Virus record (IMG/VR): IMGVR_UViG_2850808358_000013
Location: 1 to 7,858 of that record
Direction: 5' to 3' (one strand)
DNA length: 7,858 bases
DNA from: a virus
Lineage: Duplodnaviria > Heunggongvirae > Uroviricota > Caudoviricetes
Shown here: positions 3,162 to 6,766 of the stretch, piece after piece
How positions within the stretch are numbered: the first letter of the stretch is position 1
Layout of the letters: every line of letters begins with the position of its first letter
Program-made: the position numbers and the translations under genes
The notes under the pieces: model-generated
The model's input: only the letters and a program-made list of their open reading frames with translations
What the model was told of the DNA's origin: nothing
Databases searched by the model: none

Positions 3162-3800
3162 TTAAAGATTAACGTTGAAACCAAAGCGGGAAGACTTTTC
3201 CGATGTGCGGGAAATATCCAGCAATTTACGGCGCATTTCTTCCGTCAGATGCTTGAAGGCGTTAAATTCGGCGACAGCCGCATCGACGTTATAGCCGTTA
3301 CGACGTAATTCATTAAATATGCGCATTGCAGGGCTTGGCATGTCGAATAAGACGGAGGTATCAAGCTGCAATGTATTTCTATCAACATAGTTCATCGTGG
3401 CATAGGGGTGATGCTCTGAAAACCACGATAAAGGGAAATTGATATTCATCGCAGGAGAAGACAGGGCCAGTTGTTTCTGTTCCCATAGTTGTTTTTCCAT
3501 GCGATCGAATTCAGCAATGTAGGCTTCCTTGAATGCAGCTGCTTTTTTGCCGGTGAAGCCCATCACCAGAAAAACGAAGCCGTTTTTGGTGATTTGGTAG
3601 GCGTTATAGGTATTGCCTCGGTGTTCGAATTTAACCCGCGAAAAGTTGCGGGTTAAGAATTGCTCAGAGCATTCGAGGGATTCTATTTTCTGAACAACAT
3701 GGTGATGCTGCTTGCCAAAAAACTCAGCAATCGAAATAGAAGTAGTGACGGCGCGACCATTTTCGATGGTTACGTCAGGGTGAGAAAGGGTAGTAGCCAT
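3162..3800 (-). CDS. rha: Rha-family phage regulatory protein (pRha domain; antirepressor-like)
   Basis: N-terminus MATTLSHPDVTIENGRAVTTSISIAEFFGKQHHHVVQKIESL...YQITKNGFVFLVMGFTGKKAAAFKEAYIAEFDRME matches the pRha N-terminal domain as I remember it. Start chosen at ATG 3800 (GAGGA 7 nt upstream) rather than the track's 3959; the 53-codon in-frame extension is GC-rich and low-complexity. Confidence 0.8.
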   Translation of the reverse strand: MATTLSHPDVTIENGRAVTTSISIAEFFGKQHHHVVQKIESLECSEQFLTRNFSRVKFEHRGNTYNAYQITKNGFVFLVMGFTGKKAAAFKEAYIAEFDRMEKQLWEQKQLALSSPAMNINFPLSWFSEHHPYATMNYVDRNTLQLDTSVLFDMPSPAMRIFNELRRNGYNVDAAVAEFNAFKHLTEEMRRKLLDISRTSEKSSRFGFNVNL

Positions 3801-3830
3801 AATGACATCCTCAAGTGATAAGTTAATTAA

Positions 3831-3937
3831 CTCACCACCAGAGGTGCTAATCTCATGGGTGGTGAGACGCACAGGGTTAGCACTACCGGTCACTCGAGAA
3901 CCCGGCCAGCCTTGCGGCTGCCCCGCACGCCTCACCA
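3831..3937 (-). promoter_or_regulatory. Structured 5' leader of rha with three copies of a complementary motif allowing alternative hairpins
   Basis: Plus-strand ctcaccacc (3831-3839) and ggtggtgag (3858-3866) form a perfect 9-bp stem; a third copy ctcacca (3931-3937) can alternatively pair with the middle element. cagcc-ttgc-ggctg (3907-3920) is a GCAA (GNRA) tetraloop hairpin on the minus-strand RNA. Confidence 0.4.
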
Positions 3938-3961
3938 TAATTTGAATGTGGCTGTGCATTA

Positions 3962-4078: not shown

Positions 4079-4383
4079 TATCGTCCTTTCTCGGAAATGC
4101 TTTGGCGGTGCCGCCTGCACCCAAAACATTCCCTGTATTGGTCAGCGCCAACTTCCTGCCAGTGTTGCCCGTTCTCACGCCGTTCTCGCTCTCGCGCGGG
4201 GATACTCTCTCATCGACCGGATCGCACCCGATGATACAGCACGTTTACGTGTAGGGGTCTAAACAGGTCATTGACGCTGTAAAGCTCCAGATTGTTAAAG
4301 AGCATTTTGCGGCGGGTTAAGTCGCGCCGTACGACTGATTTATGTAGCCCTGTGTCAGGGCGCGATGTTTCTGGCTTGGGTAA

Positions 4384-4413
4384 AATATAATAAGTGCAAC
4401 TGATCGCAGTCAA
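4384..4413 (-). promoter_or_regulatory. Sigma70-like promoter candidate P1 (TTGACT-18-TATATT) on the minus strand
   Basis: Reverse complement of agtcaa (4408-4413) and aatata (4384-4389); sits in an AT-rich block; the same TATTGACTGCG 11-mer as P2, about 335 bp upstream of it. Confidence 0.25.
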
Positions 4414-4641
4414 TAGCAAGACTAATAATTTAATTTTAATCTATGTGATTGATTTTTAGATTAATTTATTTATGTAAAAAATATAAGCGAGGATAATGCA
4501 GGTGGTGAGTTATGGAGGATGCGCAAAGAAAAAACGGCGCTGAGGCCGGTTACTCTGTGTTAGATTTGGTGTGAGGGAACCCCTGATAACACTAAGAAAA
4601 GCAGTGAACAGTCAAAGAGAACCCAGCGGGCTTGGTGGCTT

Positions 4642-4670
4642 TTGACAAAAACATCGCCTGTAACTATAAT
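4642..4670 (+). promoter_or_regulatory. Consensus sigma70 promoter for the hicAB-like operon (TTGACA-17-TATAAT)
   Basis: ttgaca at 4642-4647, 17-nt spacer, tataat at 4665-4670. The palindrome aacta-taat-tagtt overlaps the -10 and is a candidate autoregulatory operator. Confidence 0.6.
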
Positions 4671-4699
4671 TAGTTGCAATGTAGCGAAGATGAGATTAT

Positions 4700-4954
4700 G
4701 TGGGTATGGGGAAAGCAGATAAGCTACTGGAAAAGTTTTTAAACAGTAAAAAAACGTTTGAATGGGATGAGTTGGTCGTTTTGTTTTCCTCTCTGGGATA
4801 TGTCAAAAAGGAAATGCAGGGCTCAAGAGTGCGGTTTTTCAATGCTGAAATCAACCACACCATATTAATGCATCGCCCACATCCAGAAAGTTATATTAAA
4901 GGTGGAACGCTGAAAGCGATTAAACAGAATCTGAAAGAGGCTGGGGTATTATGA
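4700..4954 (+). CDS. hicA: HicA-family toxin-like protein (YcfA/HicA fold, putative mRNA interferase); initiation may be at ATG 4706
   Basis: ..KADKLLEKFLNSKKTFEWDELVVLFSSLGY..QGSRVRFFNAEINHTILMHRPHPESYIKGGTLKAIKQNLKEAGVL fits the HicA pattern as I remember it; the stop overlaps the next start (ATGA at 4951-4954). The track start is GTG 4700. Confidence 0.7.
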   Translation: MGMGKADKLLEKFLNSKKTFEWDELVVLFSSLGYVKKEMQGSRVRFFNAEINHTILMHRPHPESYIKGGTLKAIKQNLKEAGVL

Positions 4955-5295
4955 ATCATCTAAAATATAAAGGATATTTAGGTACAGTAGAACCAGATTT
5001 TGAAAATAATATCCTGTACGGAAAACTGGCGTTTATTCGAGACCTGGTAACTTATGAGGCTTCTACATTAGCTGAACTGGAACAGGAGTTTAAGACATCG
5101 GTTGAGCTGTATTTACAGTCTTGTGTGGAGGATGGAAAGGAGCCTGATACCCCGTTTAAAGGTGTGTTTAACGTCAGACTTGATCCAGAACTGCATCGTC
5201 GGGTCGCTGAAATGGCGATGGAAGAAGATTTATCACTGAACGCCTTTGTTAATAAGGCGCTGGAAAAAGAAGTCAACCATCACACAGGGGCTTAA
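4951..5295 (+). CDS. hicB: HicB-family antitoxin-like protein with a C-terminal ribbon-helix-helix DNA-binding domain
   Basis: N-terminal YKGYLGTVEPDFENNILYGKLAFIRDL..EEPDTPF resembles HicB N-domains; C-terminal KGVFNVRLDPELHRRVAEMAMEEDLSLNAFVNKALEKEV is RHH-like; 4-bp overlap with hicA. Confidence 0.7.
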   Translation: MNHLKYKGYLGTVEPDFENNILYGKLAFIRDLVTYEASTLAELEQEFKTSVELYLQSCVEDGKEPDTPFKGVFNVRLDPELHRRVAEMAMEEDLSLNAFVNKALEKEVNHHTGA

Positions 5296-5382
5296 TGTTC
5301 CCTTCGTCTTTGACATCCTCACCGCCGAAGAATGGGGAATTTACGGCGCACTGGTAAATGGTGGGGCGAGCAGGAGGCAAAC

Positions 5383-5408
5383 AAAACCCGGCACCAAGGC
5401 CGGGTTTT
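5383..5408. terminator. Bidirectional Rho-independent terminator between the convergent hicAB-like operon and the repressor operon
   Basis: aaaacccggc-accaag-gccgggtttt: a perfect 10-bp stem with a 6-bp GC core and a 6-nt loop, with an A-run upstream and TTTTGTT downstream, so a U-tract follows on both strands. Confidence 0.6.
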
Positions 5409-5409
5409 G

Positions 5410-5580
5410 TTATTGGTGCATTTGGCAGGTTGTAATATCTGGTCCATAAGCCAAAGTAAAAACAGGCTTGTTGATCAAGCCCATGTTCTTTAATGATTGA
5501 ATCATTTTTCCTTGCTCGCTAACTTTTTGCTTGCTAAGTATTTCTTCCACTTGTTGTGTCAAGGATTTGTCTTTGTTCAT
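5410..5580 (-). CDS. Unlisted 56-codon ORF between the repressor gene and the terminator; hypothetical
   Basis: Manual translation of the minus strand gives MNKDKSLTQQVEEILSKQKVSEQGKMIQSLKNMGLINKPVFTLAYGPDITTCQMHQ; the stop lies 2 nt from the terminator stem; only a weak GTGAG Shine-Dalgarno. Below the ORF-track length cutoff. Confidence 0.3.
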   Translation of the reverse strand: MNKDKSLTQQVEEILSKQKVSEQGKMIQSLKNMGLINKPVFTLAYGPDITTCQMHQ

Positions 5581-5701: not shown

Positions 5702-6421
5702 TCAATCAAAAGTCTCATCATTCCACTGCGACTTTATGACCTTTCCGACAAACGGGCAGTTTTCGTTACACTCAATCATGTCGAATCGTGGGTTGAGTGG
5801 CTCCAGGTACGCTTTACCGCTCTCACGAATGAATCGTTTGAAGGTGAATTCATCGCCATTCATTCGGGCCACGCAAAAATCGCCATCCTCAATCTCCCGC
5901 TCAGGGTCAACGAGTATCAGCATCCCTTCGGGGAAACTGGGTTTACCACCCTGCGGCGCGGTCATTGAATGCCCCTTGACCTCCAGCCAGAACGACCTGT
6001 CACTGGCTTTTGTGGTGGTGGAGATCCACTTAATCGCATCCTTTGCGGTGTACGAAAAATCATCCATTGAGAAAGCTCCAGCCTGTACGCAGGAGAGTAA
6101 CGGATATTCGTAATATTTCTCGAACAGGTTACGCCTGTTTCCCGGTGTGTGGGTACGAATACTGCGTAACAAATCACTCAGATCTGGATTAATTTCTTCC
6201 GCAGGAACCTGTAATAAAGCCGCAAACTTAAGGGTATTTTCAGTATTTAACGCAATTTTTGCGTTCAATAACTGACTAACAGCCCCCTGCGTTTTGAAGC
6301 CGAGGATATCTGCGGCTTTTTCCTGGCTTAGGGATAGCTGTTTCCGTTTTTCATCCCAGATTTTGCGCAGTCGTTCAGCGTTCTGGATGTCTTTGTCAGT
6401 AATTGTAATTTTCTTCGTCAT
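5702..6421 (-). CDS. cI: Lambda cI-like prophage repressor (N-terminal HTH, C-terminal LexA/S24 autopeptidase domain)
   Basis: The C-terminal half is nearly colinear with lambda cI as I recall it (..[16 protein letters not shown].., ..[30 protein letters not shown].., ..[13 protein letters not shown].., ..[14 protein letters not shown]); Ala-Gly cleavage site, Ser (GHSM) and Lys (FKRF) all present. Start set at ATG 6421 (GGAGG 4 nt upstream) rather than the track's 6460. Confidence 0.9.
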
Positions 6422-6526: not shown

Positions 6527-6766
6527 ATGACTCTTGACGAGTACTTGAGACAAAGCTCTATCAGACAAGCCGATTTTGCGGCGATTGTTGGAGTTTCTCA
6601 GGGATTTGTCAGTGGGGTTATTACAGGGAGATACATGCCTCAGGGGCGGAAAGCCATTGAATGGGCAAAAGCTACAGACTGGAATGTAACTCCCCATGAA
6701 CTAAACCCGCATGACTACCTAAACATGGAAGATGGTATTCCGCTTCATGTAAGGCAAACAGCCTGA
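6527..6766 (+). CDS. Cro / YdaS-like small HTH regulator (79 aa)
   Basis: Divergent from the repressor gene with a strong SD; ..IRQADFAAIVGVSQGFVSGVITGRYMPQGRKAIEWAKATDWNVTPHELNPHDY fits the Cro/YdaS-type HTH pattern as I remember it. Confidence 0.7.
   Translation: MTLDEYLRQSSIRQADFAAIVGVSQGFVSGVITGRYMPQGRKAIEWAKATDWNVTPHELNPHDYLNMEDGIPLHVRQTA

Follow-up and report, generated by a model that had tools for sequence, protein, structure and literature searches.

Organisation of the hicAB locus

The window, i.e., the whole 7,858-nucleotide stretch of viral DNA analysed here, carries two overlapping genes on its plus strand, hicA (4706..4954) and hicB (4951..5295), which encode a toxin of 82 residues and an antitoxin of 114 residues, respectively. 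As had been described in the initial annotation, the toxin gene comes first and the two genes overlap by 4 bp; the overlap reads ATGA, and the ORFs extend over 4700/4706-4954 and 4951-5295, both on the plus strand. The 84 residues previously given to the toxin, which correspond to an alternative in-frame GTG at position 4700, are revised here, since the IncX4 plasmid copy of the gene lacks this GTG and the RefSeq call is 249 nt long, which makes ATG 4706 the most likely start codon. Such a 4-bp overlap recurs in the hicAB loci of Photorhabdus, Salmonella, Xenorhabdus and Haemophilus, among many others. Two open reading frames are also present on the minus strand within the pair, at 4696-4863 and 5052-5276.

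The initial annotation had proposed a hicA/hicB-like pair and suggested a profile search by which to check it. Both proteins score above the Pfam cut-offs: HicA scores 45 bits on HicA_toxin (PF07927 / COG1724; cut-off 27) and aligns over the entire profile (positions 1-58 of 58), and HicB scores 71 bits on PF05534 (COG4226 type; cut-off 21). Full-length matches were likewise returned to PHROG 8887 ‘toxin’ for HicA (E 9e-35) and to PHROG 9151 ‘HicB-like antitoxin’ for HicB (E 1.5e-50), and the fold searches described below concur. HicA is 100% identical to RefSeq WP_000513533.1, which RefSeq already names as such, and the annotation of the identical or near-identical pair is HicA/HicB.

The AlphaFold2 model of HicA (pLDDT 96) comprises an N-terminal extension, a helix at residues 20-29, three strands (32-36, 41-46 and 51-56) and a second helix at residues 66-79, and its best Foldseek matches in the PDB are the HicA structures 6g26 (chains E/F) and 1whz, with a probability of 0.99. 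When the HicA sequence alone served as the phmmer query, no match was obtained in the PDB, the solved HicA structures being reached only with a 113-sequence profile.

[quoted passage not shown] In the AlphaFold2 model (pLDDT 87) the former exhibits a partial RNase H-like (HicB) fold, with strands within residues 4-37 followed by a helix at residues 40-60. The top Foldseek matches are the B. pseudomallei HicB (6g26_B, 6g1n, 6g1c) and TTHA0281 (2dsy), with probabilities of 0.94-1.0 and TM-scores that are modest because the model consists of two domains; similarity of HicB to solved HicBs is undetectable at sequence level. The RHH domain previously assigned to the antitoxin is borne out by weak matches of residues 72-113 to the CopG-family RHH protein 9kkd (E 0.013) and to ORF56 (2k9i, E 0.2), by matches to Arc-like repressor PHROGs, and by the helices at residues 79-91 and 96-112 that follow an FNVRL strand segment in the model. 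An RHH-type HicB represents the ordinary ‘Class 4’ arrangement of the scheme of Gerdes and is no oddity (PMC10865869).

Transcription signals

The pair is preceded by a sigma-70 promoter on the plus strand (4642..4670), with a -35 element TTGACA (4642-4647), a 17-nt spacer and a -10 element TATAAT (4665-4670). This promoter, which had been noted as perfect in the initial annotation, indeed matches the consensus at 12/12 positions and is the sole such site in the window, where 0.01 would be expected by chance. Among six aligned hicAB loci (the window, the IncX4 plasmid, two from Photorhabdus and one each from Salmonella and Xenorhabdus), the TTGAC of the -35 element is invariant in 6/6, and the position of the -10 element differs. 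An inverted repeat 5' of the -35 element (4611-4646) is 71% complementary and is weak as a terminator.

The palindrome that had been reported over the -10 element is present, TGTAACTA-TAAT-TAGTTGCA (4659..4678, no strand assigned), and is imperfect, one arm position being mismatched. The corresponding YAACY-N6-RGTTR pattern has a single occurrence in the window, and the 20-nt block is unchanged between the prophage and IncX4 copies, the flanks of which diverge. Furthermore, a YAACY-N4-9-RGTTR palindrome lies 5' of hicA in 39 of the 57 loci of the clade to which this pair belongs, across phyla, where shuffled sequences are expected to yield 0.61. From this conservation the palindrome is predicted to represent a conserved operator, to which HicB would bind.

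Downstream of the pair, a bidirectional intrinsic terminator is predicted at 5380..5411 (no strand assigned), with a 13-bp stem (AAAACCCGGC...GCCGGGTTTT) that has an A run on one side and a T run on the other. The stem was found in both the minimum-free-energy and the centroid folds, and the hairpin was not listed by the consensus terminator scan. This terminator is predicted to be common to hicAB on the plus strand and to the convergent cI-orf56 unit on the minus strand. Between positions 4700 and 5285, the terminator scan returned no terminator-like site. A 7-bp direct repeat, TTTGACA, occurs at both ends of the cassette (4641-4647 and 5307-5313). Its interpretation as a scar of insertion was rejected, since the right-hand repeat is missing from the IncX4 copy and the homology simply fades past the stop codon.

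Prophage context

In this decayed lambdoid prophage, the cassette occupies a variable slot that is bounded by the repressor gene on one side and by the leftward early genes on the other. A cI-like repressor of 239 residues, with Pfam Peptidase_S24 and HTH_3 domains, is encoded on the minus strand at 5702..6421, so that the pair is convergent with it, as had been stated, and the locus occupies a rex-like variable slot, in agreement with the rexAB-type position ascribed to it previously. The repressor is 98-100% identical to the cI proteins of the L001 and L003 prophages and of the Stx2a phage Lyz12581Vzw.

A 56-residue ORF of PHROG 28875 (unknown function) lies 3' of cI on the minus strand (5410..5580). 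It adjoins hicAB in L001 and L005, and L003 has a small membrane protein in its place; because of this replacement and of its absence from the plasmid copies, it was rejected as an obligatory third component of the system.

Prophages with 98-100% identical cI proteins carry a BsuBI-type restriction-modification system together with a Panacea pair, a Panacea pair together with hicAB, or hicAB alone. The cI-adjacent slot swaps restriction-modification, Panacea-type and HicAB cargo, and provides a convenient natural test bed for the question of whether lysogens are protected by HicAB. The window also contains IS3-family elements at 1004-2160 and from 7520 onward, and it is missing the recombination genes left of gamL that are present in the intact relative L001.

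A closely related copy on IncX4 plasmids

The cassette (4640-5311) exhibits ~90.7% DNA identity to the hicAB genes of a 30.6-kb E. coli plasmid, which was assigned to IncX4 from its size and its IncX-type transfer genes taxC and ddp1, and HicA and HicB are each 96% identical to the IncX4 proteins. Relative to the IncX4 copy, the prophage lineage has 8 nt inserted immediately 5' of the hicA start codon. By its ATGA overlap, the lack of a terminator-like site between the genes in the terminator scan, and this high identity, the pair belongs to the HicA^O B clade. The published IncX4 pair, from p14EC007a (PMC11878559), has overlapping ORFs and no internal terminator, and its HicA is toxic and fully neutralised by HicB (Lin et al. 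2025, NAR, PMC11878559). By analogy with this 96%-identical orthologue, the HicA of the window would be toxic and would be neutralised by its HicB. The IncX4 orthologue provides a slight advantage in plasmid competition only (PMC11878559), and for the pJIE143 HicAB a role in plasmid maintenance was ruled out, according to the account of Bustamante and Iredell 2019 that is given in PMC11594946.

Candidate active-site residues of HicA

The segment QGSRVRFF, in which the initial annotation had seen a replaced or shifted active-site histidine, was read correctly: Gly39 and Ser40 are retained (codons G39-S40-R41, 4820..4828, plus strand), and the histidine of the canonical Gly-x-His at the start of strand beta2 is replaced by Arg41. 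In an HMMER profile alignment, with which hhalign concurs, Arg41 (codon 4826-4828) aligns with His24 of the B. pseudomallei HicA and with His28 of the Y. pestis HicA3. The toxin is therefore non-canonical in having an arginine at the position of the catalytic histidine of characterised HicAs. To our knowledge, all HicAs tested to date have required the Gly-Ser-His histidine.

The window is not alone in this substitution, which extends to the whole clade with a PF05534-type HicB, an old branch of the family that includes the H. influenzae HicA. Residue 41 is arginine in 126 of 150 relatives and otherwise A, G, K, S, Y or V; P0135, which has Ala56, is the sole relative among the 150 with His41, and in relative L065 His41, His56 and His59 are all present. 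Because the H. influenzae HicA, which gave the family its name, has an arginine, the catalytic histidine marks the characterised subset and not the family as named.

A second, clade-specific motif, H-x-P-H-P (H56-R57-P58-H59-P60, 4871..4885, plus strand), offers candidate relocated catalytic histidines. His56 occurs in 145/150 relatives and His59 in 147/150, and both are found in all 51 HicAs (51/51) that adjoin a PF05534-type hicB. The histidine of EINHTIL (His51), put forward earlier as an alternative catalytic residue, was rejected as such because it is present in only 55 of the 150 relatives, in contrast to the near-invariant His56 and His59 of MHRPHP. In the profile alignment and by hhalign, H56-R57 corresponds to a two-residue gap in the solved HicAs. 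Strands 41-46 and 51-56 of the AlphaFold2 model form a hairpin, across which His56 would lie opposite Arg41, judging from the predicted strand registers. In the gonococcal HicA, the histidine of the PHP segment is close in space to the catalytic histidine, and His40, the counterpart of His59, is dispensable (PMC12297915).

We give even chances to the view that in the PF05534-HicB-paired clade, which is large and spans phyla, the catalytic histidine has moved from Gly-Ser-His to His56 and/or His59 of the H-x-P-H-P motif, part of which may have arisen by a two-residue insertion. In that case, the histidine that the literature describes as essential for HicA would pertain to one branch of the family only and, taken together with the YAACY-N-RGTTR operator, the clade would represent a mechanistically distinct, structurally uncharacterised HicAB subtype. 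HicAs that lack the literature's catalytic histidine and yet are toxic give this clade its value for locating the active site.

Proposed mode of action and alternative readings

With the observed family membership, fold, architecture, promoter and operator conservation and residue pattern taken together, the locus very probably represents a complete, and probably functional, type II HicAB system of Class 4 (toxin first, RHH HicB) and of the HicA^O B clade, carried as a prophage moron. The consensus promoter would give rise to a single hicA-hicB mRNA, on which the ATGA overlap would couple the translation of both genes. The N-terminal domain of HicB is expected to bind and mask HicA, and an RHH dimer of HicB on the TGTAACTA-N4-TAGTTGCA operator over the -10 element would repress the operon. 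Free HicA, with its dsRBD-like fold, would arrest growth, most likely through RNA cleavage as in other HicAs. Catalysis in this clade, where the Gly-Ser-His histidine is Arg41, would proceed via the near-invariant His56, the predicted cross-strand neighbour of residue 41, and/or His59, the counterpart of the histidine near the active site in canonical HicAs. The biological role of the module would be that of a selfish addiction or competition module, or of an abortive-infection defence.

As to the chemistry, it is conceivable, though we consider it unlikely, that the toxin of this clade is not a HicA-type RNase and that it arrests growth in some other manner, for example by binding RNA or ribosomes stoichiometrically via its dsRBD-like surface, or through a different chemistry. 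The replacement of the histidine essential in tested HicAs by Arg or by A/G/K/S/Y/V would fit such a toxin, RNase activity of the IncX4 orthologue is not reported in PMC11878559, and no members of the clade were found among PDB structures. However, the HicA fold and the Gly-Ser turn are retained, the near-invariant His56 and His59 stand beside the old active-site position, as expected of a relocated catalytic residue, and the combinations of His41 with His56 and His59 in L065 and of His41 with Ala56 in P0135 suggest continuity with the canonical enzymes. It is very improbable that the pair is a defunct remnant in a dying prophage, with ORFs that look intact and are no longer expressed or toxic. 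The prophage is indeed degraded, by its IS3-family elements and missing recombination genes, and the 8-nt insertion relative to the plasmid copy alters the translation start region of hicA; yet the apparently complete prophage L001, whose HicA and HicB are 100% and 98% identical to those of the window, has the same insertion, no damage is seen in the promoter, operator, overlap or terminator, and the genes contain no frameshifts or stop codons.

Regarding the role of a functional HicAB pair, a mobile addiction module that is purely selfish and rides along on plasmids and prophages is a serious contender, to which we attach a little less than even confidence; such a module would bring no phage-defence benefit, and its adjacency to cI would reflect a recombination-permissive slot. 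The same cassette, from the -35 element to just past the hicB stop codon, occurs on >500 conjugative plasmids as well as in prophages with two types of immunity, and it is intact within a prophage remnant that IS elements have shortened, both of which speak for selfishness. A search of PADLOC-DB 2.0 with both proteins of the pair and with the small ORF beside them gave no match at E up to 0.01, which points the same way and leaves room for a defence function. Similarly, the P. putida prophage HicAB (HicAB2) has no effect on prophage stability or defence (PMC12894663). Against this reading, sister phages have a restriction-modification system and Panacea-type toxin-antitoxin pairs in this slot as well, HicA genes frequently lie within defence islands (Gerdes, PMC10865869), and as an addiction module the IncX4 copy performs weakly.

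Comparison with known systems

The system is already known, and the locus as such adds little to it. With the characterised HicAs, i.e., those of E. coli K-12, Y. pestis (HicA3, 4p78), B. pseudomallei (4c26/6g26), S. pneumoniae, S. meliloti and N. gonorrhoeae, the HicA of the window has in common the dsRBD-like fold (Foldseek 0.99), a Gly-Ser turn that leads into strand beta2, a P-x-P segment ahead of the last helix and a toxin-first operon with a HicB partner. Sequence similarity to these proteins is at profile level only (E 0.003 to 0.5), and the HicA of the window differs from them in the arginine that stands for the catalytic histidine, in the two-residue insertion that carries His56, in an extra N-terminal helix and short strand (residues 3-19), and in its PF05534-type HicB partner.

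The family-naming hicAB locus of H. influenzae, which is contiguous with hif, is more closely related: its HicA, taken from a genome scan, is a clear homologue (phmmer E ~1e-34) with the GSR...HKPHP residue pattern, its genes have the 4-bp overlap, and its HicB (Q9LA69) is 61% identical to that of the window. The H. influenzae pair is chromosomal, whereas that of the window is prophage-borne, and no YAACY-N-RGTTR operator was found 5' of the Pasteurellaceae copies.

The rexAB genes of phage lambda are co-transcribed with cI and act through a membrane channel. Location alone matches, i.e., that of a lysogen-expressed accessory module beside the repressor gene, with no relation in sequence or architecture. 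Unlike rexAB, the pair of the window is a toxin-antitoxin module, predicted to be self-regulated, on the strand opposite cI; RexA or RexB homologues co-transcribed with cI were not found here, the Pfam matches of the pair being to HicA and HicB only. A hicAB pair in the lambdoid rexAB position has been annotated since 2007, in the lambda-immunity phages mEp234 and HK106 (GenBank EF120460/EF120461), where hicA-hicB occupies the same slot, from cI to the OL/PL side. The HicA of these phages belongs to the same H-x-P-H-P clade (GSG...FHEPHP) and is only 34% identical to that of the window, and their HicB is another protein, longer at 152 residues. Furthermore, their hicAB genes are co-oriented with cI, with a third ORF behind them, whereas the pair of the window is convergent with cI and has its own promoter.

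Another close known system is the IncX4 HicAB (pJIE143, p14EC007a), with which the pair has in common the ATGA overlap, the promoter and operator block and the lack of an internal terminator. Identity spans from the -35 element to just past the hicB stop codon, and the 5' and 3' flanks differ, as does the carrier, which is a lambdoid prophage in the one case and a conjugative plasmid in the other. One compact cassette moves between mcr-1-type conjugative plasmids and Shiga-toxin-phage-like prophages.

Architecture of the prophage remnant

The window represents a cut-down lambdoid prophage, i.e., a remnant, which commences with an integrase gene (1-771, - strand). An IS3-family element (1004-2160, with orfA at 1004-1306 and orfB at 1342-2160) lies between the integrase gene and a gamL-like gene, where the intact relative, E. 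coli prophage locus L001, carries exo/recT and further genes over ~3 kb. Three small early-left genes separate this element from a Rha/Ash regulator gene (3162-3959, - strand), while the hicAB pair is located between the latter and a 56-codon ORF (5410-5580, - strand; PHROG 28875, function unknown) downstream of the cI-like HTH/S24 repressor gene (5702-6421, - strand). The cro-like gene (6527-6766, + strand) is soon followed by a second IS3-family transposase gene (orfA, from 7520). In the 265-residue Rha/Ash product, a Rha domain (residues 72-156) follows an Ash-family segment (residues 5-60) that matches only the C-terminal half of the Ash profile. The Rha protein of E. coli prophage locus L003 is annotated as 257 residues, and the longer ORF of the window may possess a spurious or fused N-terminus.

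The hicAB cassette

The proposal of the initial annotation that this locus encodes a HicA/HicB toxin-antitoxin pair was borne out by profile searches, in which the toxin matched Pfam HicA_toxin with 45 bits (cut-off 27) and the antitoxin matched PF05534 with 71 bits (cut-off 21), while the PHROGs ‘toxin’ and ‘HicB-like antitoxin’, both classed as morons, matched the full length of the two proteins. The AlphaFold2 model of HicA (pLDDT 96) exhibits a dsRBD-like core with an additional N-terminal helix, and among PDB folds it best matches B. pseudomallei HicA and TTHA1913 (probability 0.99). In the HicB model (pLDDT 87; top fold matches B. pseudomallei HicB and TTHA0281), the N-terminal domain is beta-rich and contains a long helix, and two helices lie C-terminal to it; the last 40 residues of HicB align weakly to CopG-type RHH proteins, in keeping with the RHH domain previously assigned to the antitoxin. 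The arrangement is the classical ‘Class 4’ of Gerdes' scheme (PMC10865869), and the HicB shares 61% identity with the original HicB of H. influenzae.

The cassette is preceded by a TTGACA-17-TATAAT promoter (4642-4670), whose perfect 12/12 match, reported earlier, is the sole such site in the window (0.01 expected by chance). The toxin had been read as 84 residues, from an alternative GTG at 4700 present in the ORF list; however, ATG 4706, yielding 82 residues, is the likely start of hicA (+ strand) because the homologue from IncX4 plasmids lacks the GTG and the RefSeq call is 249 nt. Just 5' of this start, within 4690-4710, the prophage lineage (the window and L001) carries an 8-nt insertion, TGTGGGTA, which is absent from the copies of IncX4, Photorhabdus, Salmonella and Xenorhabdus; this insertion creates both an out-of-frame ATG (4698) and the in-frame GTG (4700), and may alter the efficiency of toxin translation. 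The hicB gene (4951-5295, + strand; 114 residues) overlaps hicA by the 4 bp ATGA, as originally described. At 5380-5411, a 13-bp stem between an A run and a T run forms a hairpin able to serve as terminator for hicAB as well as for the cI-orf56 unit that converges on it. This hairpin is the strongest of the region and clear in RNA folding, but is not listed by the consensus terminator scan, which alone would therefore miss this bidirectional terminator.

Relatives and published function

The HicA of the window is identical to WP_000513533.1, annotated as HicA in E. coli prophages, and an E. coli prophage protein annotated as HicB is 98% identical to its partner. The cassette (4640-5311, from the -35 element to 16 nt beyond the hicB stop) is ~90.7% identical to hicAB of ~30-kb IncX-type plasmids; among complete E. 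coli genomes, 466 of 502 matches lie on such plasmids. At the protein level, HicA at least 95% identical occurs on 539 plasmid records, mostly conjugative plasmids. Lin et al. coined the name HicA^O B for such pairs, with overlapping ORFs and no internal terminator, and showed that HicA of plasmid p14EC007a is toxic in K-12 and fully neutralized by HicB, while the pair confers only a slight advantage in plasmid competition (PMC11878559). A plasmid-maintenance role of the pJIE143 pair was excluded by an earlier study, as cited in a 2024 review (PMC11594946). The same review asks for experimental validation of phage defence by HicAB, and a functional P. putida prophage HicAB had no influence on prophage stability or defence (PMC12894663). 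PADLOC matched no model to hicAB, nor to the L003 proteins tested. The pair is an ordinary toxin-antitoxin cassette, already annotated and experimentally anchored; the remaining interest lies in an apparent histidine relocation and an unusually deep operator conservation, both of which belong to the clade of HicAs that pair with PF05534-type HicB, and not to this locus.

Two relatives, P0223 (182 residues) and P0299 (168 residues), carry HicA_toxin and PF05534 domains in one polypeptide, representing either HicA-HicB fusions of the clade (Class 11 of Gerdes' scheme) or read-through at the 4-bp overlap. Haemophilus loci L011, L012, L015 and L017-L019 (~1250-1504) encode HicB 94-96% identical but lack an intact ORF of 55 residues or more just upstream, which suggests an orphan hicB or a decayed hicA.

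The toxin active site

Alignment by eye had indicated that the catalytic histidine of this toxin may be replaced or shifted, and the HMM search and alignment that the initial annotation had suggested uphold a replacement: in a profile of 113 toxin relatives aligned to solved HicAs, and in hhalign as a second method, Arg41 of ‘GSR’ aligns with His24 of B. pseudomallei HicA and His28 of Y. pestis HicA3, a position at which histidine is essential in every HicA tested (PMC11594946; gonococcal study PMC12297915). The toxin is in this respect non-canonical, but not as a peculiarity of the locus. Position 41 is Arg in 126 of 150 representatives and otherwise Ala, Gly, Lys, Ser, Tyr or Val. Furthermore, scanning genomes with H. 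influenzae HicB as the seed yielded 65 loci spanning Proteobacteria, Verrucomicrobia, Bacteroidota, Nitrospirae, Clostridia and Anaerolineales, 51 of which possess a HicA homologue directly 5' of hicB (position 41: 47 Arg, two Tyr, one Lys, one His), and in the H. influenzae toxin itself the sequence is GSRVRF...LHKPHP. Judging from these sequences, the Arg-for-His substitution is a property of the clade.

The histidine of ‘EINH’ (His51), put forward initially as a substitute, is present in just 55 of the 150 representatives, whereas the two histidines of the ‘H-x-P-H-P’ motif are near-invariant (His56 in 145, His59 in 147), both also occurring in all 51 hicB-adjacent HicAs. Solved HicAs show a two-residue gap opposite His56-Arg57, and the model contains a hairpin of strands 41-46 and 51-56, whose registers would bring residue 41 and His56 directly opposite each other on the exposed side of the sheet. 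His59 is the counterpart of the ‘PHP’ histidine, which in the gonococcal study lies near the catalytic histidine in space, yet is dispensable (PMC12297915). Two intermediates were found, P0135 (His41 with Ala56) and a Psychroflexus protein (His41, His56 and His59). The simplest reading is an apparent move of the catalytic histidine in this clade. Catalytic residues are not mentioned in the 2025 paper (PMC11878559) or Gerdes' survey (PMC10865869), and PDB searches found no solved structure of a member.

A conserved putative operator

The palindrome described over the -10 element is present at 4659-4678 (TGTAACTA-TAAT-TAGTTGCA), but is imperfect: one arm position is mismatched, so that by itself it is weak evidence. 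The prophage and IncX4 copies have diverged in promoter spacer and leader but share all of its 20 nt. In Photorhabdus, where two loci were compared, L006 possesses a perfect 8+8 palindrome at the same spacing to a TTGAC -35 element; near-perfect palindromes occur in the other Photorhabdus locus, as well as in the Salmonella and Xenorhabdus loci. Across the clade, 39 of 57 loci possess YAACY-N4-9-RGTTR within 110 nt 5' of hicA (shuffled sequences: mean 0.61, maximum 4), and the motif occurs once in the window. The palindrome is the expected footprint of an operator at which RHH-type HicB would bind and occlude the -10 element, and its conservation is unusually deep. The motif-free loci are mostly Pasteurellaceae (not found 5' of hicA in L013, L014, L016, L020-L026 and L056), with other palindromes farther upstream, e.g., AGCAAACGTTTGCT ~96 nt 5' of hicA. 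The RHH of Pasteurellaceae HicB is closely related despite the missing clade-wide operator.

The slot beside cI and comparison with known phages

The pair is convergent with the cI-like gene, as first noted. This cI is 98-100% identical to those of two E. coli prophages and the Stx2a phage Lyz12581Vzw, and the slot compared here extends from cI to a left flank common to the window, the Stx phage, L003 and L001. In Lyz12581Vzw (5156-8606) it holds a restriction-modification pair (a methyltransferase with a BsuBI-type endonuclease) as well as a Panacea-domain pair; in L003, a Panacea pair (4146-4996), hicAB and a small membrane protein; and in L001, like the window, hicAB and the 56-codon ORF. 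The same hicAB-orf56 module also accompanies a different cI in prophage L005. Since cargo differs beside near-identical cI genes and the module recurs beside another, the slot is a variable cargo site, the positional equivalent of lambda rexAB, and the earlier placement is sustained. The Panacea-domain protein of the sister phages and its 125-residue partner likely form a PanA-type toxin-antitoxin pair. Prophages of two different immunity types carry the 56-codon ORF together with hicAB; in L003, the place of the ORF is taken by a small ‘transmembrane anchored protein’.

Overall, the initial observation is confirmed and its interpretation essentially right. For hicAB in the rex-position slot there are precedents in the lambda-immunity phages mEp234 and HK106, whose immunity-region records of 2007 annotate both hicA and hicB in the same slot, there co-oriented with cI and with a HicA that reads GSG...FHEPHP.
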